This document shows, in pieces, positions 7,587 through 32,000 of a stretch of DNA of 32,000 bases. Source of the stretch: Candidatus Electronema halotolerans (lineage in GTDB: Bacteria; Desulfobacterota; Desulfobulbia; Desulfobulbales; Desulfobulbaceae); assembly GCA_942493095.1 (NCBI GenBank), contig OW818675.1, forward strand, positions 1-32,000. The letters are read 5' to 3'. A program made the position numbers and the translations under genes. The stretch's first letter is position 1, and the number at the start of each line of letters is the position of its first letter. The notes beneath the pieces were generated by a model. It saw only the letters and a program-made list of their open reading frames with translations, did no database searches and had not been told where the DNA came from.

Positions 7587-8729
7587 TCACTGATTCAGCA
7601 GCAAATGGAGCGTGGCTTGCAAGGCCGGGTGAAATGAGGACGGCTGCGCAAAGTACGGCTGTAGAAAAGCCATTGCCGCTTGGTCCGGCCCTTGATCAGG
7701 CTGGCCTAAATTTGTCGGCTCAAGGGTGAATTGATAATCATCATCCCACCACGGGCCGCCAGCCCACCACGTCCAGCCAAGCCATACATCAGAATTTTCT
7801 TTGATATAGGTGAGCATGTTGTAAATGACCTCATCACCAATTTGGTCTTCTGCTGTGCCAATTGTGGAATTAGCCACGGCAAATTCAGCAAGAAAACCTT
7901 TGAAGTTGTGTTCTTTCAGCCAGTTGGTGAATTCCTCAAACTTCCATGTAATATAGGGATCATTGTTGCAAATTTCAGATGACTGGCCGGAGCTGTCACA
8001 ATCCATATACTGGTGAACTTCAAAGGCAAAATTGTTTTCCGAATCAACAATATTGAGCATGGCCTCAGAATTGGCACCATCATACCATGTTGCTGTCCAT
8101 GACCAAGCCCCGGTCCACCCGTTGCCGGGCACTAATATCAGATTTTTTGCTCCCGCATCACGAATAGCGGCAATGGCAGCATTTTCAGACGTGACCAATT
8201 GTGCTGTGGGCATGCTATTTGGTTCATTCATCAAACCAAAGATGACTTGGTTATTTTCTTTATAGTGACTGGCAAGTTTACTCCAGAAATCAGCAAACGC
8301 GGAATCTGGCACTTCATCGGTTCCGACCAGTCGCTTTTGGACATCATTTGAATCAGGATAGTATCGTTGATAATTATGAGGGTCAAGAATCACATAAGCA
8401 CCCTTTTCTGTCGCATAGTCAACAAAGGCATCCATCCGTGCCAGTTCGTCTGCATCCAATGCAGCATTCTGAGATTGTTGCAGCCGTTCCCAGCGAAAGG
8501 GCAGCCGAAAGGTGTTCATGCCTTTGCCGAGATAGTAATCAATCTCGGCAGAGTTTGGATATATGTAATCGGTGCCGTAGGTGCCGGGGAGATTGGAAGG
8601 GGTAGAGTCGGCACCGGATAAATTGATGCCGGTATATTTAATTTTTGCCTGCAAAATTGCTGGAAAAAACAGTAAGGCTGTGATCGTAAGCAATAAAAAC
8701 AATATCTGATGGAAGCTGCTTTTCTTCAC
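7587..8729 (-). CDS. Secreted glycoside hydrolase family 5 (cellulase/endoglucanase-like)
   Basis: GH5 pattern: TFRLPFRWERL, VILDPHNY, the acid/base motif FGLMNEPN, HQY, and the nucleophile context GFLAEFAV. I place the start at the GTG at 8729, because AAGGAG (complement of 8736-8741) lies 6 nt upstream and gives a classic signal peptide (V/M)KKSSFHQILFLLLTITALLFFPAILQA. The TTG at 8759 in the ORF track has no SD. GC is lower than the neighbours: sample lines count 21/60, 25/60 and 32/60. Confidence 0.8.
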   Translation of the reverse strand: MKKSSFHQILFLLLTITALLFFPAILQAKIKYTGINLSGADSTPSNLPGTYGTDYIYPNSAEIDYYLGKGMNTFRLPFRWERLQQSQNAALDADELARMDAFVDYATEKGAYVILDPHNYQRYYPDSNDVQKRLVGTDEVPDSAFADFWSKLASHYKENNQVIFGLMNEPNSMPTAQLVTSENAAIAAIRDAGAKNLILVPGNGWTGAWSWTATWYDGANSEAMLNIVDSENNFAFEVHQYMDCDSSGQSSEICNNDPYITWKFEEFTNWLKEHNFKGFLAEFAVANSTIGTAEDQIGDEVIYNMLTYIKENSDVWLGWTWWAGGPWWDDDYQFTLEPTNLGQPDQGPDQAAMAFLQPYFAQPSSFHPALQATLHLLLNQ

Positions 8730-9003
8730 TGAATTCTCCTTGTGTAAATGCGGATTCAAGTTGCAAGAGCAACGTTTGCTGATTTAAAAAGAACGAATTA
8801 CAGCAGGATGATAACCCGATTTTTGCAAAATAGCAAGAGGAGCGCAGAAAATCAACTTACCGAAACAAAACGTGACCAGATAGATGTACGCCTTGAGGCA
8901 GGCAGGATTGAAGCTGTCACGAAAATTTCCTGGCTTCATCACACCCAAAAAGCTATTCTTGAGAGTGAGTTAATCCGCAATCTCTGACCGCAACTGAACC
9001 ACC

Positions 9004-10679: not shown

Positions 10680-12221
10680 TCATATATCCTCCCTGACCAG
10701 AACCAGCTCGACCCGTGGCAGTCGGTATTCATAGGCCCGCTGCGACTCGCCGGGCTGCCGTGGCAGCGGCTGATTGCCGCCTAATCCCAGCGGACGCACC
10801 CGGTTCGGGTCAATATTATGGGTGATTTGAAGATAGCGGCTCACTGCCTCAGCCCGATCCTGCGACAGACGCAAATTCTCATTCGGGTCGCCGCGCAGGC
10901 CGGTGTGGCCTTTGATGACAATGCGGAAGTGCGGATAATGACTGAGCCGCTCCATAGCCGCATCAATGGTCTGCTTGCCAAGGATGTCCAAGGTCGAGGT
11001 GCCCTGCTGGAAGATGATCGGATCAAGCTTCAGGGTGCCCACTTCCTTGAGCGCAGCCCAGCCCGCGCTGTCCAAGGGAGCAAAGGTGGCTGCCGTGCTC
11101 TTGCCGCTCTTGGTGAAGCCGGTGCTGCCCTGAAACAGCTCCTCCAGAAAGCTGCGGTTGGTGAGCCGGTAGGGATTGCCATCAGGGATCGGGCTTGAAG
11201 CAAAGTCGCCCGCATTGACGAGAATGTCAGCCGTGGATTCAATCGCGGCAATAATGCCTTCCTCGCCCATGCCGCCTGTGGCAGTCAGGCCGAACCACTG
11301 CTCGCAGTTGTCCACGAGCGAGAGCCAGTTCACGCCCTTGAGCATGATGCGGGCCTGCTCCTCATCCAAGCCGGTTTCTTCGGTAAGATGGCGGACCAGC
11401 AGGGCTTGATCCTGGCGGTATTTCTTCAGGACCTTGAAATAGGTGTTGAGGAAGAGCTTGACTAACTGGGGATTCTTGTCGGCAAAGTCACGGCGGACAA
11501 GGAGGATGTCAACAATCAGCCGCTCCGTGTCCTCTGTGCCGAGCAGCTTGACAATGCCTTTGTTCTGGAGAGCCTGGGTCACATCCGGCTCCCAGAGCAC
11601 AGCCACATCCGCCTCGCCGGAGAGCAGAACTTTTTTGGCCTGCTCTGAGCCTTTGGTGGCAATGCGCAGCGGGCCGGGCGGCGGATGCAGCTCCGGGACA
11701 TTGAAGTGGTCAGCAGCAGCCTTGGCCAGATGCTCGCTGGGGCTGGCTGAAGTGAAGGCCACCTTGGCATCGAGCTTGCCCTTGAGCGCGTCAAGATTGG
11801 CCACCCGGTCTTTGCGGGCAAGGATGGCATCGCCGCCCTTGGATTCGTCAATGACCGCGACAATCACTGCCGGGTAGCTGAACTGCTTCGCATTGAGCAG
11901 GTACGAATCCACAGTGGCCACAGCAAAATCAAACTCGCCCTCGTCCAAGCGTTTCATGCGGCTCTGATAGTCAGCCTTGTCATCCTCATAAGCCAAGAGC
12001 CAGCCAGCCCGGTGCAGGGCGGTTTTCATCTCTGGCGAGCGGATGGGAAAATAGCCGATCCAATTATCCACAGCAAGGCGGAGCTTGCCTTGAGTTCCGG
12101 CGGCATCGCTGGTCGCCTCCTGCTGGCGGTCAAGCAGCACTGGCAGGAGCAGCCATATCCCGTAGGTGACACCCATGCCGAGCAGGAGCAGGAGCAGGGC
12201 GCCGATCAGTCTGTCCTTCAT
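10680..12221 (-). CDS. Membrane-anchored periplasmic-binding-protein-like domain fused to a C-terminal OmpA-like peptidoglycan-binding domain
   Basis: N-terminal TM helix LIGALLLLLLGMGVTYGIWLLLPVLL. An SBP-like region follows (LRLAVDNWIGYFPI..., FDFAVATVDSYLLNA, VIVAVIDESKGGDAIL). The C-terminus is OmpA-like: FRIVIKGHTGLRGDPNENLRLSQDRAEAVSRYL. The ATG overlaps the upstream stop (ATGA at 12218-12221). Confidence 0.75.
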   Translation of the reverse strand: MKDRLIGALLLLLLGMGVTYGIWLLLPVLLDRQQEATSDAAGTQGKLRLAVDNWIGYFPIRSPEMKTALHRAGWLLAYEDDKADYQSRMKRLDEGEFDFAVATVDSYLLNAKQFSYPAVIVAVIDESKGGDAILARKDRVANLDALKGKLDAKVAFTSASPSEHLAKAAADHFNVPELHPPPGPLRIATKGSEQAKKVLLSGEADVAVLWEPDVTQALQNKGIVKLLGTEDTERLIVDILLVRRDFADKNPQLVKLFLNTYFKVLKKYRQDQALLVRHLTEETGLDEEQARIMLKGVNWLSLVDNCEQWFGLTATGGMGEEGIIAAIESTADILVNAGDFASSPIPDGNPYRLTNRSFLEELFQGSTGFTKSGKSTAATFAPLDSAGWAALKEVGTLKLDPIIFQQGTSTLDILGKQTIDAAMERLSHYPHFRIVIKGHTGLRGDPNENLRLSQDRAEAVSRYLQITHNIDPNRVRPLGLGGNQPLPRQPGESQRAYEYRLPRVELVLVREDI

Positions 12222-12994
12222 GGCGCAAACGCAGCCGGATCAAAGGTTTCCGCCTCAGCCAAGACATCAGCCAGCCCTTGGCGCAGGGCGGCAGGATTGT
12301 CCGCCGCCTTATAGACCGTGCGGCCCGGCATGTTGAGGCTGTGGTTCGTGCCAATGCAGAAGCCGATGGTGTGCAGCTCCACTGGCGTGTTGTTCAGCAT
12401 CCAGTTGACTTTTGCCGCAGGATCCTGGTTGCCATCGGCCTGCCCGTCCGTGACCACCACCAGCACATAACGGCCATAGCCAAGCTGGCGCGCAGCCTGC
12501 TGTTCCAGATGCGCATAACCGGTGCTGATCGCATCTTTAAGCGGGGTGCCGCCGGAAGCAGAGGCGGACTGAACCGTCTCGGCAAACTGCTGCCGGTTGC
12601 CCGTGCCCAAGGGCACCAGCTCGTAAATCTTGCTGTTGGTGAAGAGGAGCAGGCCAAGGTTGGCATCTGCCGGAACATTGGCGGCAAACTCTTTGAGCGC
12701 ATCCTTGGCTGTTTCAAGTTTGCTTTGCCTGCCAGAACACTGGTTGTCCTGCATGGAGCCGCTGCCGTCCAAGACCACATAGTAATTGGCGGCCAGCAGG
12801 TTCTTGGCCAAATGCACCTCTCCCTGCGGCGCAGGCGGCCAAGCCTTGCCAGCAGAATTCAGTGCATTTGCTGTCTTAGTCGTAGTTGCAGGCAAACTGC
12901 GCTGCTGTTTTTTCGGTGGTGGCGGTGAATCCTTGCAAGCGGTCAATCCGCCGAACAGCAGGACGGCCAGCAAGGTTGCTGCAATGCGTTTCAT
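12218..12994 (-). CDS. von Willebrand factor A (vWA) domain lipoprotein
   Basis: Signal peptide plus lipobox MKRIAATLLAVLLFGGLTAC. MIDAS motif YYVVLDGSGSM, later GGTPL and VLVVVTDGQADG. I prefer the ATG at 12994, which has SD GGGAGAG upstream, over the GTG at 13012 in the ORF track. Confidence 0.8.
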   Translation of the reverse strand: MKRIAATLLAVLLFGGLTACKDSPPPPKKQQRSLPATTTKTANALNSAGKAWPPAPQGEVHLAKNLLAANYYVVLDGSGSMQDNQCSGRQSKLETAKDALKEFAANVPADANLGLLLFTNSKIYELVPLGTGNRQQFAETVQSASASGGTPLKDAISTGYAHLEQQAARQLGYGRYVLVVVTDGQADGNQDPAAKVNWMLNNTPVELHTIGFCIGTNHSLNMPGRTVYKAADNPAALRQGLADVLAEAETFDPAAFAP

Positions 12995-13008
12995 TCTTCT
13001 CTCTCCCT

Positions 13009-14721
13009 TCACAACGGCGTGAAAACAGAAGTTTCAGCCTCAAGCTGGAGGATGCGGAACTCAACCCGCATGTTGTCGCGCCACTCCTGCTCCGTCTTAG
13101 GAGCGCACGGCTCGCTGCCGCAGATGCCGGTCTTGGGCTTGGCAATGCCGTGGCCCACGACGGCGAACTGGCTTTCATCCAAGGTGATGCCCTTGGCCGC
13201 AGCAAAGGCGATGATGCTGTCGCGCACGGCATTGGCCCGCGACAGACTGAGATTCTTGGCTGCCTGCTTGATCTGCTTGAGCACCATCTCGGTGGCATTG
13301 TTCTTCTTTGCCTTGAGATATCCAAGCGGGTCAGAATGCCCTTCAATGGTGATCACTGCGCCGCCGTAGGTGCTGGCCAGCTCAATCACCTTGCTGAAGG
13401 CATCCGCATACAGGTCCGCAGCGAACTGGTTCTGATTGGGCTGGAAAAAGACCTCAAAGGAGAACAGCTCGCCTTGGCTCAGGGTGCCCTGCTGCTGCTT
13501 GCGCTGGATCACGCCTGCCACCTTGGCAGTGTCAAACTTGGGCACAGCCACGCCCGCTATATTGCTCAGACCTTGTTTCAGGGTATTGTAATCAAAACTC
13601 GCCGCTGCAAACGGAGTCTGCTTGCCGAGCAGGCCGAGCGTGACAAAGGCGCTTTGAATCTGCTTCTGGAGCTTGTCGAAGTTGCGCGGATAGTTCTTGT
13701 CAGTGAAGAACTTGACATTGCCGGGAAAGCCGACAAATTCGCAGTCTGCATGGAGCGATTCCGCATCAGCAGTCGCTGCCGGACTGTCGAGCAGTATCTG
13801 GGCTGAAGCCTTGATCATGGCGGTGTAGTCCTTCATCCGGCTGCTCTTGTCTTTGAACAAGGCGGTGAGCTGCTCCTCGCCCTGCATCAGGCCGTTGACA
13901 AACTGCTCCACCTCGCTGCGATGGGCCTTGAAGTAATCAGAACGCACAGCATAGACATCAGCAATGACCCGGTTGGCGGTTTTGGTGGAAAGCATGATCT
14001 CCGCCCCTTTGACCGAGCCTTCCGCGCCTGTGCCGACCGTGCCGCCAGAGGTCAGGGCCAGTCCGTCCGGGATGATCATCATGGCCGCGTCAATGCCCTG
14101 ATCGCGGAAGGCCTCTGCCGGAGTCTCATCCGTGCCGGTCAAATCCTTGACCCATTTGATGGTCACATCCTTCATGGTCAGCCCGGCATCGGCGAGCACT
14201 GTGGCCAGATAATCAGCATGCGGGCCGTAGGCTTGCAGGGCCACGGTCTTGCCTTTCAGGTCCTTGGCCGTCTTGATGCCCGGCTTGACCACCAGACAGT
14301 CGCCGCCGTTTGACCACGTGAGCTGATAAATAATCACTGGCGCGGTGCGCGGGTCACGGGCAAGCACCTCGGCGGCCATGCCGACCATGCCGAGCGTGCC
14401 GCGCAGATAGGGTGTTTCGCCGCGCAGGTAGGCTTCGACCTGCTTTTTAAAGTCATCCTCGCGCACCAGGTGCAGATTCAGCCCTTTTTTGGCAAAAATG
14501 CTGCCCGGCGCAGTCTTGACCGCATTGCCGTTGGCAAGGATGGTGGCTTCGTCGCCGCCCCACGTGATGAGCGGCACTTGCACCGCCGCTCCTGCTTTAA
14601 CCTCTCCAGCCGGAGCAGTGATGACCTTGGCCAATGGCGGCGATTCAACATACTGCACGGCTTGGGCCGCAGTGCCGCAGAGCGCAAGGCAGATGCAGAG
14701 CAACTGCGCAATTTTTTTCAT
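13009..14721 (-). CDS. Secreted periplasmic-binding-protein-like domain fused to a C-terminal OmpA-like domain
   Basis: The ATG at 14721 has SD GGGAGA 7 nt upstream and gives the signal peptide MKKIAQLLCICLALCGTAAQA. The 57 codons upstream in the ORF track run into the repeat array. SBP-like region: LKGKTVALQAYGPHADYLA... OmpA-like C-terminus: VITIEGHSDPLG...LSLSRANAVRDSI...VEFRI. Confidence 0.75.
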   Translation of the reverse strand: MKKIAQLLCICLALCGTAAQAVQYVESPPLAKVITAPAGEVKAGAAVQVPLITWGGDEATILANGNAVKTAPGSIFAKKGLNLHLVREDDFKKQVEAYLRGETPYLRGTLGMVGMAAEVLARDPRTAPVIIYQLTWSNGGDCLVVKPGIKTAKDLKGKTVALQAYGPHADYLATVLADAGLTMKDVTIKWVKDLTGTDETPAEAFRDQGIDAAMMIIPDGLALTSGGTVGTGAEGSVKGAEIMLSTKTANRVIADVYAVRSDYFKAHRSEVEQFVNGLMQGEEQLTALFKDKSSRMKDYTAMIKASAQILLDSPAATADAESLHADCEFVGFPGNVKFFTDKNYPRNFDKLQKQIQSAFVTLGLLGKQTPFAAASFDYNTLKQGLSNIAGVAVPKFDTAKVAGVIQRKQQQGTLSQGELFSFEVFFQPNQNQFAADLYADAFSKVIELASTYGGAVITIEGHSDPLGYLKAKKNNATEMVLKQIKQAAKNLSLSRANAVRDSIIAFAAAKGITLDESQFAVVGHGIAKPKTGICGSEPCAPKTEQEWRDNMRVEFRILQLEAETSVFTPL

Positions 14722-14802
14722 GATAAAATCTCCCTTGAGTTGGATGCAGGTGCATTCCCAGTTTTGGGCAGCTTCGCATGAATGACAGAGTATGTCAAGT
14801 TT

Positions 14803-14831
14803 TTTATAAGAGGAATTGCGAGTTTGGGCAA
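14803..14831 (-). promoter_or_regulatory. Possible sigma70-type promoter TTGCCC-N17-TATAAA for the envelope operon
   Basis: On the minus strand, TTGCCC is the complement of 14826-14831, the spacer is 17 nt, and TATAAA is the complement of 14803-14808. It lies about 80 nt upstream of the ATG at 14721 and directly abuts the repeat array. Confidence 0.3.
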
Positions 14832-14834
14832 CCG

Positions 14835-15087
14835 GTTCATGCCCATAGTCCAGAAAGTTCCATGCACATGAACCGGAGCGTTCCATGCACATACACCCGA
14901 CTCGTCCATGTGCTTAGGCGAGGTTCATCTATGTGCTTATGCGAGACCCATCTATGTACATAGTTCTGATTCCCCCATGCACATAGATGCCGGACGACCA
15001 TGTGCATGGATGAAAAAGTTCCATGCACGGTGGTCGGTTTTCCCATTGTGCGCATGGAGGGGCGGTTCATGAACCGCCCCTACGCCT
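14835..15087. repeat. Eleven degenerate tandem units in exact 23-bp register, conserved core YCATGYRC (often CCATG-YR-CATGG)
   Basis: The 8-mers at 14837, 14860, 14883, 14906, 14929, 14952, 14975, 14998, 15021, 15044 and 15067 are TCATGCCC, CCATGCAC, CCATGCAC, CCATGTGC, CTATGTGC, CTATGTAC, CCATGCAC, CCATGTGC, CCATGCAC, CATTGTGC and TCATGAAC. The linker sequence between cores is not conserved. Confidence 0.8.
15059..15080 (-). other. Perfect 22-nt palindrome GGGGCGGTTCATGAACCGCCCC touching the NACHT stop codon
   Basis: The sequence is self-complementary over all 22 nt (a 9-bp GC-rich stem with a 4-nt loop as RNA). Its last base is the first base of the complement of the TAG at 15080-15082. 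No U-tract follows on the minus strand, so it is not a canonical intrinsic terminator. Confidence 0.5.
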
Positions 15088-17692
15088 CCTTCTTTTCCAG
15101 GATGGTGCCGGTGAGAATAGCGTCATCTAAGATCGCTCCCTCTAAATTGGCCCCTTCAAGGTTTGCGTCGCGCAAATTCGCATAAATAAGGACTGCGCCT
15201 TTGAGATTCGCTCCTGTAAGGTTGGCATCTTGCAAATTGGCTCCAAAAATATCCGCCTTTTCAAGATGCACGCCTTGCAAGTTTGCTTTTGCAAGAATTG
15301 AAAAATGCAACTTTGCGCCTTCAAGACGAGACATGGCAAAATTTGCACCCGCAAAATTCTGCACTGCAAGATGATAGCCGGATAAATCTAAGTATCCCAA
15401 CCAGCCTGCACGAGCACGCGGTCCACTCACCCGCCTAAACCATTCCCCGAAGGCTTGAGCAGACTCCAGCTCCAGCCTCGAAACCTGCTTAGTCAGCTCC
15501 GCGATATGAAAATGCACGGCCAGAAACGTTTCTTCCGCATTCCGGGCCAAGCGCAGGTGCTCCTTAAAGCCTTTGCCCAAGAAGGCATCAGGAAAAGGCA
15601 GGCCCTGATTGATGGTGTAACTGAGCAGCCCGCGCACCATGCCCTGCAAATTTTTCAGATCCTCTTTCTGCATCGCCCGGAACTCGTTGCTGATAAAGCG
15701 CAGCAGGTCATAATCCATATACGTGATGGCACAAAAGCCGGTCCAGTGCTGCAAAGCCTCCTTGTCTGACCAGCCGTCATCCGGGTCTTCCTGCCGCCGT
15801 CTGCGCTGCTTCTCCATCTGCCGCAAAACCCGGACAATGCGCAGGGCTGTCAGGTATTCGCCGAAGCTCTTATGGGTGAACTCAAAGGTCGGGTCGCCGT
15901 CCTGGCGGCTGTCGCTCTGCCGGAAATAAAAGGCGGTGAGCAGGCGGGTCACGCCCGCTTTGGCCCCTTCTTGGAATCGCTCCAGATAGCGTTCAATGCC
16001 GCCGGACTTGCACTTTGCCCGAATCCCGGCAACCGTGGCCGTGCGTCCGTCACCATGCCAGACCGCCAGCGCGATTTCTTCTAATACCCGGATGAAGTCT
16101 TTCTCCTCCAGCCCGCCCGTGCAAGTACTCACCCGTCCGCCGTCTTCGTACTGACGGCAATAGACCGCCCGGATAAGGTCGGCATAGATTTGATTCAGGG
16201 TGGTCTCATCGGTAAACTCGATGGTCTTGCGGTCATAGCTTAACGCGACCAAGTAATTCAGGAGCGGCTGGGCCGTGATCTCAGCCAGATGCTGCCGCGC
16301 CAGTTCATCAGGCAGGCCCGCATAGCCTTTGCCCGCAGCCGTGCCGTACCGTTGCCACCAGTCCTGCCGCTGATCACGCTCAAGCAGCTTGGCCGGGTCT
16401 TCGTATTGCTTCCGCTCCTCTTCCGCAACAAAATAGGGCAGAACGTGAGTTATCTGCTTATGCTTCCGCAGCTTCGTCTCCACCGACTGAACAGCGATAG
16501 TCCGCCCGGTGATAATGACCTGCCATTGTTTATCATAGCCGTTGTATTCCCGGATGCTATTCAACACCTCGTCGATAAAGTTATTGGCTACTTCCGAGGC
16601 CGCCTTGCCTTGCTGGGCCAGTTCGTCCAAACCGTCAAAGATGAGCAGGAGCCGGTTTTTACCCTTCTTGGCATCAAGCGGATTGCTGGGCAGAAATGGT
16701 TTTTTCCTGACATAGCTCTCCATTGCATCGATCAGGTCGCCCGTAGCATCAAAACGATGCAGGGGAATGTACAGGCAGGGAATCTTGCCTTCTGCGGCTG
16801 TCTTGGCGGCGAATATCTTGGCAAAGGTCGATTTTCCTGAACCCGGCCCGCCACTGATAAAGCGCACTGCTTGAGCAGCGGTGAAGTTGTTCAGCCAGCT
16901 GCGGAACTCGCTTTCCAGATCAACCACAATCCGTTTGGCCCTATCCCGCTGCGGCGCAATCTCCGGGCTGCTGCCCTCGTCCCGCTCCTTTTCCTCGTAA
17001 TAGGCCCGCAGCGGCACATAGACCTTTTCGACACCGAATGCCTCGGCAAACATCCGGTCGCTGATCTGCCGTTGCAGCCATTGCTTGTAGAGCTGCCAGC
17101 TCCGCACTTCTTCTGTGGCACTGGTGAACGGACTGTCGAAATACTGGGTCAGGGCGGCATAGTCATTCGGTGCCTTGCGCCATGTTTCATGCAGGGCAAA
17201 GACAAAATAATCCGGCAGACGAGAGGCTATCTGTTCCGCATCAACAGCACTGGCACCCAAGCCTTGCAGCCAAGCAGATAACGGAACTTGCAATTCCTTC
17301 AGCAGAGGCAGGTCGCCGGGCCGGTTGAAGAAATCAAGGCTGATTGTTACGTCCGCCTTGCCCATTTCTTCTTCAAAGCGGGCGGAAAGCGTTTCCAGCT
17401 CCGCTTCTTCCGGGCGATTGCGGAACAAATCACGGTTGTTCTTCACCAACTCTGCTAAGGCGGCGAACAGTGCGCGGGAAATGAGCTGCCAAGCCAGCTC
17501 TTCGGGTTTCTTGCTCACGCCAAGGGCGGCAAGGGCATCCACGGCAGCCGAGCCAACGTCGCTCCAGTCTTGGCACACACCCTCGACAACCATTTTGCCA
17601 AGACTGACAAAGAATTTCCTTGGTTCAACCTTGATTGCTTTGTTCCAAGCAGAAACCGGTTTGCTGATGTTCAGCTCATTGGTGGAAGTCAT
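15080..17692 (-). CDS. STAND NTPase: unassigned N-terminal ~270 aa, NACHT domain, helical region, C-terminal pentapeptide-repeat domain
   Basis: Walker A ISGGPGSGKSTF (complement of 16826-16852), Walker B RLLLIFDGLDEL, and the NACHT-type FEFTHKSFGEYLTA. The last ~105 aa (about 15083-15397) are pentapeptide repeats (ANFAMSRLEGAKLHFSILAKANLQGVHLEKADIFGANLQDANLTGANLKGAVLIYANLRDANLEGANLEGAILDDAILTG). There is no obvious SD before the ATG at 17692. Confidence 0.85.
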   Translation of the reverse strand: MTSTNELNISKPVSAWNKAIKVEPRKFFVSLGKMVVEGVCQDWSDVGSAAVDALAALGVSKKPEELAWQLISRALFAALAELVKNNRDLFRNRPEEAELETLSARFEEEMGKADVTISLDFFNRPGDLPLLKELQVPLSAWLQGLGASAVDAEQIASRLPDYFVFALHETWRKAPNDYAALTQYFDSPFTSATEEVRSWQLYKQWLQRQISDRMFAEAFGVEKVYVPLRAYYEEKERDEGSSPEIAPQRDRAKRIVVDLESEFRSWLNNFTAAQAVRFISGGPGSGKSTFAKIFAAKTAAEGKIPCLYIPLHRFDATGDLIDAMESYVRKKPFLPSNPLDAKKGKNRLLLIFDGLDELAQQGKAASEVANNFIDEVLNSIREYNGYDKQWQVIITGRTIAVQSVETKLRKHKQITHVLPYFVAEEERKQYEDPAKLLERDQRQDWWQRYGTAAGKGYAGLPDELARQHLAEITAQPLLNYLVALSYDRKTIEFTDETTLNQIYADLIRAVYCRQYEDGGRVSTCTGGLEEKDFIRVLEEIALAVWHGDGRTATVAGIRAKCKSGGIERYLERFQEGAKAGVTRLLTAFYFRQSDSRQDGDPTFEFTHKSFGEYLTALRIVRVLRQMEKQRRRRQEDPDDGWSDKEALQHWTGFCAITYMDYDLLRFISNEFRAMQKEDLKNLQGMVRGLLSYTINQGLPFPDAFLGKGFKEHLRLARNAEETFLAVHFHIAELTKQVSRLELESAQAFGEWFRRVSGPRARAGWLGYLDLSGYHLAVQNFAGANFAMSRLEGAKLHFSILAKANLQGVHLEKADIFGANLQDANLTGANLKGAVLIYANLRDANLEGANLEGAILDDAILTGTILEKKEA

Positions 17693-17843
17693 TGTGAAAG
17701 AAGAGAAGTTGGAGTTGCGCAGTTGATTATTCGTGCCGCCATGTTACTCTGTTTTTCTCGGGAGGAGGGAGAAAAGGACGGAAGAGCTTTTGAAGAACGA
17801 CCTTGGTGGTTTCTGTGCGGATTCAGTGACGAGTTGAGTATAA

Positions 17844-17873
17844 TTCCCACGCCCTTGCCTTTGAGCGTGGGAA
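17844..17873 (-). terminator. Hairpin downstream of hcp (TTCCCACGC-N12-GCGTGGGAA)
   Basis: A 9-bp perfect inverted repeat starts 11 nt after the hcp stop. On the minus strand it is followed by TTATACTC, only a weak U-tract. Confidence 0.4.
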
Positions 17874-17883
17874 CAGATTCTTC

Positions 17884-19515
17884 TCAGCCCAAGATTGCCT
17901 GCAAGTCCTCCTCCGGCGTGGCCGCAATCGGCCTGATGCCAAAGGTGGCGACAAGGAAGTTGAGAATAGCCGGGCTGATGAAGGCGGGCAGGGACGGCCC
18001 CAGACGAATGTCCTTGATGCCGAGCGAGAGCAGGGTCAGGAGGATGGCTGCCGCCTTCTGCTCATACCAGGAGATGATCATCGAGAGCGGCAGCTCGTTC
18101 ACGCCGCAGTTGAAGGCTTTGGCCAAGGCCAGGGCGATCTGAATGGCGGAATAAGCATCGTTGCACTGACCCACGTCCAGCAGGCGCGGAATGCCGCCAA
18201 TTGTGCCAAGGTCTTTGTCAAAGAAGCGGAACTTGCCGCAGGCCAAGGTCAGCACCATGCAGTCCGCAGGCACCTGCTCGACAAAGCGGGTGAAGTAGTC
18301 ACGGCCTGGTTTGGCTCCGTCACATCCGCCGACCAAGAAAAAGTGGCGGATTTGCTTGCCCTTGACCGCCTCAATCACCTTGTCCGCCACACCCAGCACC
18401 GCATTGTGGGCAAAACCGACCATGACGCTGCCCTTGTCCGCATCATCTTGCCAACCATCCATTGCCAAGGCCTTGTCAATCACCGCGCTGAAGTCCTTGC
18501 CCTCGATGTGGGTCACGCCGGGCCAGCCCACCAGACCCGTGGTGAAGATGCGTTCCTTGTAGTCCTCACGCGGCTTCTGAATACAGTTGGTGGTGAAGAG
18601 CACCGGGCCGGGAAATTCCGGGAACTCCTTGTGCTGGTTCTGCCAGGCCGTGCCAAAGTGGCCGTAGAAGTGCGGGTGCTTTTTCAACTCCGGGTAGCCG
18701 TGGCAGGGCAGCATCTCGCCGTGGGTATAGATATCAATACCCTTGCCAGCGGTCTGCTGGAGGAGCAGGTCAAGGTCGCGCAGGTCATGGCCAGTGATCA
18801 GAATGCACTTGTTCTTGCGATGACCAAGCGGCACTGAGGTCGGCACCGGGTGGCCATAGCTGCCGGTGTTGCCCGCATCGAGCAGCTCCATTGCCCGCAG
18901 ATTGATCTGCCCAGCCTTCATGGCCACAGGCACGCACTGCTCAATGGTCAGCCCTTCGGCCAGCAGCACCGACAGAGCCTCATACATGAAGCCAGCAATG
19001 GCCGGGTCCTCCTGCCCAAGAATGGCGGCATGATCCGCGTAGGCGGCAATGCCTTTCAGGCCGTAGAGCAAGGTCTGCTTGAGCGAGCGGATGTTCTCGT
19101 CCGCATCCAAGGTCTCGATGAACTTGAGGGCCGCGCCCTGCTCGGCCAAGCCTTCCACCGTCTCCGCTGAAGCAAAGGAGGCTGCCGGATGAGCAAAGTC
19201 GGTCTTGCCGCCCTTTGCCGCAAGCTGCGCCTTCAAGGCCTCGCGCAGTTCAATCGTCTTGGTGATCAAGGCGATAAAGCGGTCAGGGTCAAAATTGACA
19301 TTGGTCAGGGTTGAGAACACCGCCTTCATGACAAAGCGGTCCAGCTCGGCATCGACCATGTCCTGCTGTCTTGCCTCGTGCGCATAAAGCGACAGGCCGC
19401 AGAGGGCGTGGATGAGCAGGTCTTCAATGTTGGCCAGCTCGTCGCTTTTGCCGCAGATGCCAGCCTTGGTGCAGGCAATGCCCTTGGCCGTTTGTTCACA
19501 CTGATTGCAGTACAT
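17884..19515 (-). CDS. hcp: Hybrid-cluster protein / hydroxylamine reductase
   Basis: Characteristic N-terminus MYCNQCEQTAKGIACTKAGICGK. Length and internal motifs are typical of Hcp (HGEMLPCHGYPELKK, TTNCIQKP, VGGCDGAKPGRDYFT, LDVGQCNDAYSAIQIA). SD GGGAGGAA precedes the ATG. Confidence 0.95.
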   Translation of the reverse strand: MYCNQCEQTAKGIACTKAGICGKSDELANIEDLLIHALCGLSLYAHEARQQDMVDAELDRFVMKAVFSTLTNVNFDPDRFIALITKTIELREALKAQLAAKGGKTDFAHPAASFASAETVEGLAEQGAALKFIETLDADENIRSLKQTLLYGLKGIAAYADHAAILGQEDPAIAGFMYEALSVLLAEGLTIEQCVPVAMKAGQINLRAMELLDAGNTGSYGHPVPTSVPLGHRKNKCILITGHDLRDLDLLLQQTAGKGIDIYTHGEMLPCHGYPELKKHPHFYGHFGTAWQNQHKEFPEFPGPVLFTTNCIQKPREDYKERIFTTGLVGWPGVTHIEGKDFSAVIDKALAMDGWQDDADKGSVMVGFAHNAVLGVADKVIEAVKGKQIRHFFLVGGCDGAKPGRDYFTRFVEQVPADCMVLTLACGKFRFFDKDLGTIGGIPRLLDVGQCNDAYSAIQIALALAKAFNCGVNELPLSMIISWYEQKAAAILLTLLSLGIKDIRLGPSLPAFISPAILNFLVATFGIRPIAATPEEDLQAILG

Positions 19516-28957: not shown

Positions 28958-30313
28958 ATGTTTGACAATCTTACTGAACGCCTTGAAGGAGTTTTCAAAA
29001 AGCTGCGCGGTCATGGCAGGCTGACTGAAGCCAATATTGAAGAGGCCATGCGCGAGGTGCGCACAGCCCTGCTGGAAGCGGATGTCAACCTTCAAGTGGT
29101 CAAGGATTTTGTCGCCTCAGTCACGGCCAAGGCCATTGGCCAGGAGGTGCTGACCAGTCTGGCTCCGGGCCAGCAGGTCATCAAGGTCGTGTATGAGGAG
29201 CTGGTCACCCTACTTGGTTCTTACGCCGAGCCGCTGCGGCTGGACGGACGGCAGCCAGTCCTGATCATGATGGCTGGTCTGCAAGGTTCAGGCAAGACCA
29301 CCACTTCGGCCAAGCTGGCCCGCCTGCTCAAGGAGAAAGGCCGCAAGCCCTTTCTCGTGCCTGCGGATGTCTATCGTCCGGCAGCCATTGACCAGCTCCA
29401 TGTGCTGGGCGAGCAGATTGGGGTGCCGGTTTTTGCCTCCACGGTTACGCAGAAGCCTGCGGACATTGCCCGCCAAGCTGAGGCGCAGGCCAAGGCCGAA
29501 GGTTATGACACGCTGATTCTTGACACAGCAGGCCGTCTTCATGTTGATGAGGAGCTGATGGCCGAGCTGCAAGAGATTGCCAAAACCGTGCCGCTGACTG
29601 AGGTGCTCTTTGTCGCCGATGCCATGACCGGCCAGGACGCAGTGGCCGTGGCAGCCAAATTCAGCAGCGATTTGGACATCACCGGCGTGATCCTGACCAA
29701 GATGGAGGGCGATGCCCGTGGCGGCGCGGCCCTGTCGGTCAATCAGGTCACAGGCAGGCCGATCAAGTTTGTCGGCATCGGTGAAGGCTTGGACGCGCTG
29801 GAAATTTTCCATCCAGACCGGGCCGCCTCCCGCATCCTCGGCATGGGCGATGTCCTCTCCCTGATCGAGAAGGCGGAAAAGGTTGTTGACGAGAAAAAGG
29901 CCAGGCAGTTAGCCAGCAAACTGCGCAAGAATACCTTCACGCTCGATGATTTTTTAGAGCAGCTCCAGCATATTAAGAAAATGGGCAGCATGGAGCAACT
30001 CATGAGCATGGTGCCGGGCATCAGCAAGCTCAAGCAGCTCAAGGATGCGCCCCAGCCCAGCGAGAAGGAGCTGTTCAAGACTGAGGCCATCATCCTCTCC
30101 ATGACGAAGAAGGAGCGGGCCAATTACAAAGTTATCAATGCCAGCCGCAGAATCCGCATTGCTGCCGGCTCCGGCACCACCGTGGCAGAGGTCAACCGGG
30201 TGCTGAAAAGCTACACCATGATGCTCAAAATGATGAAAAAAATCAGTGGCAAAGCGGCAGTGGTCAAAGATGGCCAACGGCGTAAGCTGCCCAAAGGCCT
30301 GCGTCGCCGCTGA
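28958..30313 (+). CDS. ffh: Signal recognition particle protein
   Basis: MFDNLTERLEGVFKKLRG..., GTPase motifs GLQGSGKTTT, DTAGRL and TKMEGDARGG, and a Met-rich M domain (MGSMEQLMSMVPG ... MMLKMMKK). I take the ATG at 28958 rather than the GTG at 28952. Confidence 0.95.
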   Translation: MFDNLTERLEGVFKKLRGHGRLTEANIEEAMREVRTALLEADVNLQVVKDFVASVTAKAIGQEVLTSLAPGQQVIKVVYEELVTLLGSYAEPLRLDGRQPVLIMMAGLQGSGKTTTSAKLARLLKEKGRKPFLVPADVYRPAAIDQLHVLGEQIGVPVFASTVTQKPADIARQAEAQAKAEGYDTLILDTAGRLHVDEELMAELQEIAKTVPLTEVLFVADAMTGQDAVAVAAKFSSDLDITGVILTKMEGDARGGAALSVNQVTGRPIKFVGIGEGLDALEIFHPDRAASRILGMGDVLSLIEKAEKVVDEKKARQLASKLRKNTFTLDDFLEQLQHIKKMGSMEQLMSMVPGISKLKQLKDAPQPSEKELFKTEAIILSMTKKERANYKVINASRRIRIAAGSGTTVAEVNRVLKSYTMMLKMMKKISGKAAVVKDGQRRKLPKGLRRR

Positions 30314-30364
30314 AAAACTACAACTCAGGGAACTGTTGATACCGACAAATACTCTGAGCCTGTC

Positions 30365-30379
30365 AAAAGGTGGCCTTTT
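30365..30379 (+). terminator. Small hairpin AAAAGG-tgg-CCTTTT after ffh
   Basis: A 6-bp stem with a 3-nt loop, 52 nt after the ffh stop and 25 nt before the next ATG. It is weak (AT-rich stem, short T-run). Confidence 0.25.
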
Positions 30380-30403
30380 CTGCTCTATAACAGGAGAAAG
30401 AAC

Positions 30404-31858
30404 ATGAAATCCATAAAACTGACAAAAAAAGCAAACGTATTGATAGCTATAGCATTTCTTTGCATCAGCTTGGATGGGAACCACGAGTTGTATGGTGAAA
30501 ACATGTTGCTCATGATTCCGCCTATTTTGGCAAAGAAAAAGGCAGAGGGGCCGTTGAGCGGATATTGGTATTACACCCATAATGGGTATGAACTGAATAT
30601 GTCTCAAAATGGAGATCAATTAACTGCAACTTATACAAATTTAAGCAGCGATGCGACGTTCAATATAGGCGACCAAGCATTTTACGGAACGTTGAAAGAT
30701 AATAATATTACTGGAAAAATAAGAAGCAGATTTCCTATTGAAATTAAAGAGGTATGCCCAAATAATTGGGAGATATGGGCTGATGTCAATATGACTCTTT
30801 CTGATGATCTTCATGACATTCAAGGGCAATATAAAACATATACAATATATTCATCAGATTGCCACGTAGAAGATGGAGATTGGCAGCCGATAAATGTTAC
30901 AAGAACATTTACCCCTATTCTTAGTCCTGCAAAAGCTATTGAAGTAAAAATTACAGGAGAGCCATCTGCTGTGATTATTCGAACTAAAGATCAAAAAATT
31001 GGAGCAATACTTAATGGTGAGCAAGATTCATCAGGGAATTTAAAACAAGTAACTGATATCACATATTTCAATACTGAAAACAATAATATTAATGATGTTG
31101 TTCATCTTCATATTGATCCTATCGAAAAAACATTAAAATTTGTTTCTCCGGATGGAAAATTTGTTGTAATTGATAATTACAATCCTGTTTCAAAAACAGT
31201 AACCAAAAAAACTGGTGATATAGATACTGATGGGACAGAACATGTTACTTCAACGGAAGAAAACATTAAGGTTGATGATACATACAACGATATTGTAAAT
31301 CCTGATGATACAGTATCAAATATTTTTGAAGGTTTGAATAAAGTATGGAATGGCCTTCAATTATTAGGTAAAAAAATGTTTCCTCCATGGATTAGCTGGG
31401 TCTTTACAGTCAAACCAGATATATCTCAAGAAGACAGGTGCATAATTGACAATGTGTCTGGGCTTGTCAATCTACTTAATATGACTAAAAATATAACAGG
31501 ATGGATACACTCTATTTTTATCTTGAAAGAAACTCCTGTTTTGTCTTTCATCAAGACATTAGTTGAGAACGTTGAGAAATTATTTAGCTTTGGCCAAGAT
31601 GATGGCGCAGACAAAGTTTTTAAAACATGTGGAGCGGGTGTAGTATGTTGCTACCAACTTCAAGAGTTATGCAGAAAATATGGAGATGAAATTTACTCCA
31701 CACAATGCACTTGCACAATACTTACTTATGATGAAGTAAAAAAAATACAAATTATGCAAGAATGCGAGTCAATAGGAGGAGTGTCTGAATCTGTGGGCGA
31801 TTTTGTATGGTGCAAACAGTGGGATTTAGAGCCTCCATCCAAATGCGAAAATCCGTGA
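30404..31858 (+). CDS. Low-GC orphan gene: secreted or anchored protein of unknown function with a Cys-rich C-terminus
   Basis: SD AGGAGA 7 nt upstream of the ATG. N-terminal hydrophobic signal/anchor KKANVLIAIAFLCISL. The 484-aa ORF stays uninterrupted despite low GC (22/60 and 13/60 in two counted lines, versus 37/60 in ffh). The last ~90 aa hold about 10 Cys. I recognise no family motif. Confidence 0.7.
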   Translation: MKSIKLTKKANVLIAIAFLCISLDGNHELYGENMLLMIPPILAKKKAEGPLSGYWYYTHNGYELNMSQNGDQLTATYTNLSSDATFNIGDQAFYGTLKDNNITGKIRSRFPIEIKEVCPNNWEIWADVNMTLSDDLHDIQGQYKTYTIYSSDCHVEDGDWQPINVTRTFTPILSPAKAIEVKITGEPSAVIIRTKDQKIGAILNGEQDSSGNLKQVTDITYFNTENNNINDVVHLHIDPIEKTLKFVSPDGKFVVIDNYNPVSKTVTKKTGDIDTDGTEHVTSTEENIKVDDTYNDIVNPDDTVSNIFEGLNKVWNGLQLLGKKMFPPWISWVFTVKPDISQEDRCIIDNVSGLVNLLNMTKNITGWIHSIFILKETPVLSFIKTLVENVEKLFSFGQDDGADKVFKTCGAGVVCCYQLQELCRKYGDEIYSTQCTCTILTYDEVKKIQIMQECESIGGVSESVGDFVWCKQWDLEPPSKCENP

Positions 31859-31963
31859 CAGAATAATAATTACAGATAGTTGACAGGCGACAAGCCCTCC
31901 CTAATGGAGGACTATCCACTATATCATTACCGGAACATCTTATTCACAGGAGACAAGAAAAAA

Positions 31964-32000
31964 ATGGCAGTACGAATCCGCCTGACCAGAAAAGGCCGTA
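31964..32000 (+). CDS. rpsP: 30S ribosomal protein S16, 5' fragment cut by window end
   Basis: SD AGGAGA at 31948-31953, ATG at 31964, translation MAVRIRLTRKGR, the conserved S16 N-terminus. The position downstream of ffh is expected. Confidence 0.8.
   Translation, partial: MAVRIRLTRKGR

Follow-up and report, generated by a model that had tools for sequence, protein, structure and literature searches.

A clade 9 NNH3–NACHT–pentapeptide protein of cable bacteria as a candidate NLR-like immune ATPase

Contig OW818675.1 of Candidatus Electronema halotolerans (assembly GCA_942493095.1) was analysed over positions 1 to 32,000, a stretch of 32,000 nucleotides referred to here as the window. An open reading frame (ORF) of 870 aa with an ATG start occupies 15080..17692 of its minus strand, and the product is 100% identical to the NCBI entry 'NACHT domain-containing protein [Candidatus Electronema halotolerans]'. 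This protein is probably a cytoplasmic, single-polypeptide, NLR-like STAND ATPase of the NNH3–NACHT–pentapeptide group, clade 9 of the bacterial NACHT proteins, with a presumed role in immunity. Its architecture, including the NNH3 domain, has been catalogued since 2022, and the protein is a new cable-bacterium ortholog, neither a new domain nor a new system. The parts of the gene are as follows.

15080..17692, minus strand: complete gene, NNH3 – NACHT – helical region – pentapeptide beta-helix (ORF listing, NCBI identity, AlphaFold model)
16883-17692, minus strand: extended N-terminal region, residues 1–270, surrounding NNH3
17033..17629, minus strand: NNH3 domain, residues 22–220, all-alpha (Pfam PF22735, 'NACHT N-terminal helical domain 3')
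16436..16861, minus strand: NACHT nucleotide-binding domain, residues 278–419 (Pfam PF05729, 36.1 bits against a cutoff of 26.7)
16826..16852, minus strand: Walker A, GGPGSGKST, residues 281–289 (translation check and invariant columns)
16619..16651, minus strand: Walker B with the NACHT signature D-G-L-D-E, LLLIFDGLDEL, residues 348–358 (translation check)
15413..16435, minus strand: helical and winged-helix portion of the NACHT module with an additional helical linker, residues 420–760 (DSSP of the model)
15101..15400, minus strand: pentapeptide-repeat beta-helix of 20 units in about five coils, residues 765–864, presumed ligand sensor (Pfam PF00805, E = 2.8e-20)

Domain architecture and assignment to clade 9

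The full-length AlphaFold model of the protein has a mean predicted local distance difference test score (pLDDT) of 84.9 and a predicted template-modelling score (pTM) of 0.82. An initial annotation, made from the sequence alone, had described a canonical NACHT core, a long helical middle region and about 100 aa of C-terminal pentapeptide repeats, and all three were recovered. Translation placed GGPGSGKST, LLLIFDGLDEL and FEFTHKSFGEYLTA (15845-15886, within residues 420–760) where they had been reported, the model exhibits a long helical region after the ATPase domain, and the repeats form 20 units at residues 765–864. Residues D353-G354-L355-D356-E357 conform to D[GAS]hDE, the NACHT Walker B signature as defined by Kibby et al. 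(bioRxiv 10.1101/2022.07.19.500537). In an alignment of 105 homologs, G284, G286, K287 and S288 of Walker A and D353, D356 and E357 of Walker B are invariant, as are R397 (sensor 1) and H607, the histidine of the winged-helix segment FEFTHKSFGEYL. No Pfam model matches residues 441–760, even at E <= 10. Since each defining feature examined was present, membership of the NACHT clade of STAND P-loop NTPases is firm.

A structural search of the PDB with the full-length model returned human NLRP3-deltaPYD as the best match (E = 2e-9, 841 aligned columns), followed by pentapeptide proteins and NLRP9; MfpA and Qnr structures were also among the matches. The protein shares with the animal NLRs NLRP3 and NLRP9 the NACHT nucleotide-binding domain, the helical and winged-helix module and the DGxDE form of Walker B, whereas sequence identity to them is 12%, the pentapeptide beta-helix stands in place of the LRRs and NNH3 in place of the PYD or CARD death-fold domain. 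Among bacterial systems, bNACHT01, 02, 09, 11 and 12 and Avs/AVAST are likewise single-gene STAND NTPases with the same sensor–switch–output logic, but they belong to other clades and carry other terminal domains. For the tested bNACHT proteins, Walker A is reported by Kibby et al. to be required for defence.

The NNH and Pp (pentapeptide) domains are defined in the figure legends of Kibby et al., and Table S1 of that work lists NNH3+NACHT+Pentapeptide as a clade 9 architecture. The same table assigns to clade 9 the combinations EAD10+NNH3+NACHT+Pentapeptide_4, NNH3+NACHT+Pentapeptide+REC, NNH4+NACHT+Pentapeptide and NNH4+NACHT+Ntox49. The label 'NNH3' occurs 12 times in Table S1, corresponding to six rows, all six of them clade 9. 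With an N-terminal NNH3 domain (E = 3.2e-44) and C-terminal pentapeptide repeats (E = 2.8e-20), the 870-aa protein exhibits both features of the clade 9 architecture, and by architecture and sequence similarity it can be placed in this clade. Its domain order is that of the clade 9 proteins NJO80537.1, WP_168505314.1 and WP_118166576.1 listed by Kibby et al., and proteins of Nostoc, Anabaena and Calothrix resemble it over their full length with the same Pfam content. It differs from the clade 9 rows examined in Table S1 in its host, a cable bacterium (Desulfobulbaceae), and from other clade 9 proteins in its short repeat domain, 20 units compared with up to ~80. A literature search for clade 9, pentapeptide NACHT proteins or NACHT proteins in cable bacteria led only to Kibby et al. 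and Kaur et al.

The N-terminal NNH3 domain

The N-terminal ~270 residues had at first been left unassigned and regarded as a possible effector of a new type. Residues 22–220 instead match the named family NNH3 (PF22735) with 151.9 bits against a cutoff of 27 (E = 3.2e-44), a result that did not change when residues 1–270 were scanned alone. At E <= 10, NNH3 was the only Pfam family detected in residues 1–270, with no nuclease, TIR, protease or kinase signal, and no membrane segment was present in this region (highest 19-residue hydropathy, 1.2). The initial observation that the region lacks a nuclease, TIR, protease, kinase or pore signature was thus borne out. A membrane-anchor or pore role for NNH3 was considered and found unsupported, as there is no hydrophobic segment and the helices are only moderately amphipathic.

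The model of residues 1–275 is all-alpha with ~11 helices (pLDDT 82.4, pTM 0.77). Foldseek searches with this model gave no match at E <= 1e-3 in either the PDB (best E = 0.41, TM <= 0.25) or BFVD (best E = 0.5). In the 105-sequence alignment, E217 is the sole invariant charged residue of residues 1–270, the other invariant positions being aromatic, aliphatic or proline, and NNH3 has no conserved set of His, Cys or Asp residues and no conserved catalytic set. Because conserved catalytic residues were not found, the output of NNH3 is most likely non-enzymatic, which is a likelier alternative than a new enzyme.

Among 1.84 billion cluster representatives, a profile built from the NNH3 region matched 1299 clusters at E <= 1e-3, 587 of them at E <= 1e-30. 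In the best 150 of the 1299 clusters the domain always starts within residues 1–35, the position that effectors occupy in NLRs; NNH3 is therefore an N-terminal domain, and the family is of modest size. Either NNH3 itself is the effector, or it forms a constant scaffold and depends on a partner. The second possibility arises because some relatives in Table S1 of Kibby et al. have an EAD10 domain ahead of NNH3 or end in a toxin domain; EADs have been proposed in the literature to recruit effectors via homotypic contacts.

The pentapeptide beta-helix

In the model, strands recur every five residues throughout the pentapeptide domain, and the five coils of the beta-helix span only ~25 Å. Inward- and outward-pointing positions were assigned from the repeat strings, and the identity of cable-bacterium orthologs to the window protein was determined for each class.

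Repeat position i, inward-pointing L/F: identity 89%
Repeat position i-2, inward-pointing A: identity 86%
Repeat positions i+1, i+2 and i-1, outward-pointing: identity 46–54%

The ratio of non-synonymous to synonymous substitution rates (dN/dS) also peaks in the repeat domain, at 0.27–0.60, compared with 0.11–0.20 for residues 441–620, and the length of the repeat region ranges from 85 to 407 aa across the family. The outward repeat positions are the fastest-evolving part of the protein, as would be expected if a rigid scaffold carried a changing binding surface; relaxed constraint would give a similar pattern of variability. A variable surface on a conserved beta-helix core provides a defined place to seek a ligand. 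Kibby et al., in their supplementary discussion, describe pentapeptide repeats as an 'antigen receptor type' C-terminal sensor.

The initial annotation had envisaged this domain as a DNA mimic, in the manner of Qnr and MfpA, that serves as bait for an invader's DNA-binding protein. The domain does share with Qnr, MfpA and AlbG the right-handed quadrilateral beta-helix of A(D/N)LXX repeats. MfpA and Qnr have a strongly and consistently anionic rod surface and dimerise via a C-terminal helix. By comparison, the domain described here is fused to an ATPase rather than free-standing and its charge is weak and variable: it contains 12 acidic and 9 basic residues, a net charge of -3 over 110 aa (about -4 at the outward positions), and across the family the charge of the repeat domain varies from -13 to +7 per 100 aa. 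The NCBIfam models of the Qnr and MfpA families score 22–25 bits against cutoffs of 240–500 (Qnr 22.6 against 240, MfpA 22.1 against 360), and in the full-length model no helix follows the last coil, leaving no C-terminal dimerisation helix. On account of the weak and variable charge, the scores far below cutoff and the missing dimerisation helix, the DNA-mimic bait is not supported.

The closest sequence matches of the repeat domain in the PDB are the cyanobacterial proteins Np275/276 (E = 7e-19), HetL (All3740; E = 1e-17) and Rfr proteins such as Rfr23, together with a match to the Alr5209 family (E = 5e-15) that lies below the family cutoff. These proteins differ from the present one in being small and stand-alone, and because all of the scores fall under family cutoffs, the likeness to HetL, Np275, Rfr23 and Alr5209 is one of generic repeat similarity.

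Distribution and evolution of the family

A homolog search gave 1671 matches at E <= 1e-5 among 8000 scored candidates. Full-length relatives with 69–82% identity are present in at least 14 cable-bacterium assemblies of both genera, including Electronema V4, JC, TJ, JM, PJ and KV and Electrothrix scaldis, Rat3, AX5, YB6, GW3-4 and GM3_4. A Syntrophorhabdaceae metagenome-assembled genome encodes a relative with 52% identity, and proteins with 41–47% identity occur in Nostoc, Anabaena, Calothrix, Microcoleus, Symploca, Methylobacter, Methylomonas and Leucothrix. The family is concentrated in filamentous, multicellular bacteria, in agreement with the published association of NACHT paralogs with multicellular bacteria. 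A pattern-based scan of genome contigs gave only 5 loci and is unfit for counting paralogs or for judging presence and absence.

The whole protein is under purifying selection (overall dN/dS 0.16–0.29), and residues 441–620 form the most conserved segment, with 85% identity among cable-bacterium orthologs. NNH3 is 70% identical within the cable bacteria. Between two syntenic Electrothrix genomes the NACHT gene is 73% identical, compared with 74–88% for eight flanking genes. Relative to E. halotolerans, hcp, the gene next to the NACHT gene in the window, is 83–90% identical in other cable bacteria, and the NACHT protein 70–78%. The hcp sequences follow the split between the genera (85–90% to Electronema, 83–84% to Electrothrix), whereas the best named match of the NACHT protein is from Electrothrix scaldis (78%), with 82% for a fragment from Electronema KV and 70–76% for other Electronema. 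These values hint at a faster or partly non-vertical evolution of the NACHT protein, and exchange among cable bacteria or uneven evolutionary rates may lie behind the discordance with hcp.

The orthologs of Electrothrix sp. GW3-4 (locus L014, 6001-8533) and YB6 (locus L015, 6001-8537) are interrupted, each split by frame changes into an NNH3–NACHT part (572 aa in GW3-4, 686 aa in YB6) and a pentapeptide part (212 aa and 158 aa, respectively). Translated searches (tblastn) covered nearly the whole protein in both split copies, which may be pseudogenes or long-read assembly errors. Because these copies are interrupted, the NACHT gene may be dispensable.

Genomic context of the gene and its relatives

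In the window, hcp (17884-19515; Prismane, E = 1e-159) lies directly upstream of the NACHT gene and an array with a 23-bp period lies downstream, so that the gene stands alone between the two, as first described. The other neighbours in the window encode a GAF-HD protein, PtsI, an NMT1-like binding protein and vWA and OmpA proteins.

The related loci differ in their surroundings. In Electrothrix scaldis, Rat3 and GW3-4 the NACHT gene follows mqnA-ubiE (its start lies 7 bp after ubiE in Electrothrix scaldis) and precedes a variable cassette of PIN/Phd/MazE toxin–antitoxin genes or SLFN-AlbA. The cassette slots lie directly downstream of the NACHT gene in three Electrothrix genomes (L001, 12699-14213; L004, 12944-15915; L014, 8548-10216) and hold PIN/PhdYeFM and MazE/PIN pairs or SLFN_AlbA_2-HATPase_c_4, while the outer flanks (ubiE, flavoprotein, Zn-peptidase) are conserved; the slot looks like a small variable hotspot. 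The NACHT gene follows ddl with a 4-bp overlap in Electronema V4, lies after lptF/G in Electronema TJ, between pgi and mfd in JM and before relA in KV, and follows DUF2868/DUF3482 genes in Electrothrix YB6. In the Syntrophorhabdaceae genome its vicinity includes ORC/Cdc6-like, CAP12/PCTIR TIR and ParE/PIN genes, and in Methylomonas and Calothrix it is surrounded by housekeeping genes. Across the 12 related loci no partner gene is conserved.

The NACHT gene sits at a different place in almost every cable-bacterium genome; we considered this as a sign of mobility and dropped it, as the neighbours of hcp also differ among three close relatives. Scrambling of gene order is heavy and general in cable bacteria, hcp included, and position is thus uninformative on mobility. 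The hcp neighbours in the three relatives (L016, L017 and L018, 89–95% identity) are cytochrome c554, relA-smr and grpE-dnaK, and a type I-C CRISPR-Cas cluster lies ~6 kb from hcp in Electronema aureum.

Flanking hairpins and repeat array

Two hairpins bracket the NACHT gene.

15058..15081, minus strand: perfect 24-nt palindrome AGGGGCGGTTCATGAACCGCCCCT overlapping the TAG stop, a 3' hairpin without a U-tract (RNA fold -23.9 kcal/mol, z = -3.2)
17843..17874, minus strand: hairpin with a 12-bp stem just past the hcp stop, parting hcp from the NACHT gene (RNA fold -26.8 kcal/mol, z = -4.15)

The palindrome over the stop codon, already noticed at the outset, is perfect, and a terminator scan did not call it. 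A sigma-70 scan found no promoter in the 190-bp spacer between hcp and the NACHT gene, and the 40 nt before the ATG, GAATAATCAACTGCGCAACTCCAACTTCTCTTCTTTCACA, contain on direct reading no purine-rich Shine-Dalgarno run, in agreement with the initial annotation. Because it is bracketed by strong hairpins, the NACHT gene looks to be its own transcription unit, though the sigma-70 scan was promoterless.

The array occupies 14837-15030, between the NACHT stop and the next minus-strand gene, and comprises 8–9 units with an exact 23-bp period. Its near-palindromic core, C[CT]ATG[CT][AG]CAT, matches at 14860, 14883, 14906, 14929, 14952, 14975 and 14998. The array was not found in any of the 13 related loci examined, which rules it out as a part of the NACHT system; it could represent an operator array, or else a small repeat element lying ahead of the gene for the binding protein. 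Inverted 9-mers, CGGTTCATG (14833-14841) and CATGAACCG (15068-15076), bracket the ~250-bp intergenic region. The second of them sits within the stop-codon palindrome, and half-sites of the GGTTCAT type recur in the array; palindrome and array may be one element.

The downstream ORF (13009-14892, minus strand) begins inside the array and has a signal-peptide-like start, MKKIAQLLCICLALCGTAAQA, at codon 58 (14719-14721), so that the real downstream gene, encoding the NMT1-like binding protein, is probably 13009-14721 on the minus strand. It is followed in the minus-strand cluster by vWA (12218-13012) and OmpA-domain (10680-12221) genes. The G+C content of the window dips to 0.44 at 8001-9000 and to 0.35–0.43 at 30001-32000, compared with 0.56–0.63 elsewhere, and a GH5 cellulase gene (7587-8759, minus strand) lies within the first dip. 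These two low-G+C segments may have been horizontally acquired.

Proposed function and alternatives

The steps of the mechanism that we favour, namely ligand binding, nucleotide exchange, oligomerisation and output, are drawn from analogy with NLRs, Avs and the tested bNACHT proteins. The surface of the beta-helix would bind a protein ligand, either an invader protein or a guarded host protein, and binding would free the NACHT switch from autoinhibition and permit the exchange of ADP for ATP. The NACHT modules would then oligomerise and cluster the N-terminal NNH3 domains, which would give the output. Such an output would most likely be non-enzymatic, with NNH3 recruiting a separately encoded effector or with the clustered helices acting directly, and the signal would probably serve to counter the invader or to bring about altruistic death in a multicellular filament. 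The order of C-terminal sensor, central switch and N-terminal output that had been proposed at the start is retained here, in keeping with the placement of clade 9 among presumed anti-phage NLR-related proteins by Kibby et al. in Table S1, while the DNA-mimic bait and the effector of a new type are not. Likewise, the idea of a single-gene immune sensor agrees with the stand-alone NACHT/STAND layout of the gene, but draws nothing from its neighbours in the window or from defence-model recognition.

Several observations weigh against this explanation. The ten neighbours in the window are housekeeping genes, none of which fits a defence model apart from a generic OmpA/MotB match. The PADLOC models, which include Avs and some bNACHT types, missed the NACHT protein: the best match had E = 0.012 and no Avs model matched. 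Beyond generic P-loop and pentapeptide matches, PADLOC, NCBIfam and PHROGs gave nothing informative. Toxin–antitoxin or TIR neighbours occur only at L001, L004, L006 and L014 among ~12 related loci. Retention in at least 14 cable-bacterium assemblies and 41–47% identity to cyanobacterial proteins are more conservative than is typical of fast-turnover defence genes. Plasmids are nearly without the family (3 distant matches with 24–27% identity among 72,556 records), and no member was found in phage records. That some family members in Table S1 carry an extra EAD10 adaptor before NNH3 or a C-terminal toxin domain also detracts from NNH3 as the output domain. Finally, no clade 9 row examined in Tables S1 and S2 of Kibby et al. 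carries a bNACHT## test label, and the tested bNACHT genes examined in Table S2 are enterobacterial or Vibrio proteins not labelled as clade 9; as far as these tables go, clade 9 is therefore known by bioinformatics only.

Much of this conservative evolution and housekeeping context favours the main rival, a non-immune signalling STAND ATPase retained in lineages of filamentous bacteria as a housekeeping or developmental switch (for instance one governing cell fate, the integrity of the filament or an invader-independent programmed death), with the pentapeptide domain binding an endogenous partner. Presence in both cable-bacterium genera at 69–82% identity, synteny in three Electrothrix genomes with an identity close to that of flanking housekeeping genes (73% against 74–88%), purifying selection along the full length, close embedding among housekeeping genes (the 4-bp overlap with ddl, the start 7 bp after ubiE) and window neighbours without defence matches are all in line with such a switch, as is the nearness of the repeat domain to the cyanobacterial HetL, Np275 and Rfr-type proteins; HetL binds heterocyst regulators. 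We nevertheless regard it as unlikely, since NACHT clades whose function is known all work in immunity or cell death, the rapid change of the exposed repeat surface and the variable number of repeats resemble those of arms-race sensors, the GW3-4 and YB6 copies are interrupted and possibly pseudogenes, and EAD10 adaptors or toxin domains, which are characteristic of conflict systems, are present in relatives listed by Kibby et al. in Table S1.

The two remaining alternatives turn on DNA mimicry. The polarity of the protein could be reversed, with the beta-helix as an effector that inhibits gyrase or some other DNA-binding enzyme, whether from the host or from the invader, and NNH3 as the sensing or regulatory end. 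Kaur et al. 2020 observed pentapeptide repeats at effector positions in other conflict systems, where they could inhibit DNA-binding proteins, MfpA and Qnr appear among the structural matches, and NNH3 lacks effector-like features. This arrangement is improbable, however, given the weak (-3) and unconserved (-13 to +7 per 100 aa) charge, the short span of ~25 Å with no dimerisation helix predicted, and Qnr and MfpA scores 10- to 20-fold under their cutoffs. A surface aimed at a conserved enzyme should moreover be conserved, whereas here it is the most variable part, and NNH3 is well conserved, unlike a typical sensor. The version of the initial annotation, in which a DNA-binding protein of the invader is caught by the DNA mimic and NNH3 acts as a new enzymatic type of effector, accords with the layout of C-terminal sensor and N-terminal output, with the variable repeat surface and with an NNH3 fold that has no match in the PDB or BFVD. 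It is the most remote of these explanations: residue charges reveal no polyanionic surface and no conserved charge, the lone invariant charge of NNH3 (E217), with no His, Cys or Asp set conserved, speaks against an enzyme, and the family is already described (PF22735).

Returning to the NLR-like immune ATPase, a more specific form of it can be proposed, although it is speculative and quite doubtful. NNH3 would be a new fold and a non-enzymatic effector activated by oligomerisation, with a logic like that of the CC domain of plant resistosomes or the fungal HeLo domain. Clade 9 would be a vertically retained NLR of cable bacteria and Nostocales in which the beta-helix guards a conserved host protein, and the death of one infected cell would protect the filament.

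To our knowledge, no function has been demonstrated and no structure solved for any clade 9 NACHT protein or NNH3 domain. A confident NNH3 model without a structural neighbour hence marks a real gap, in the field rather than at this locus. With its concentration in multicellular filamentous bacteria and its retention across cable bacteria, the family is a reasonable one in which to examine the idea that bacterial multicellularity goes together with NLR-type suicide signalling.

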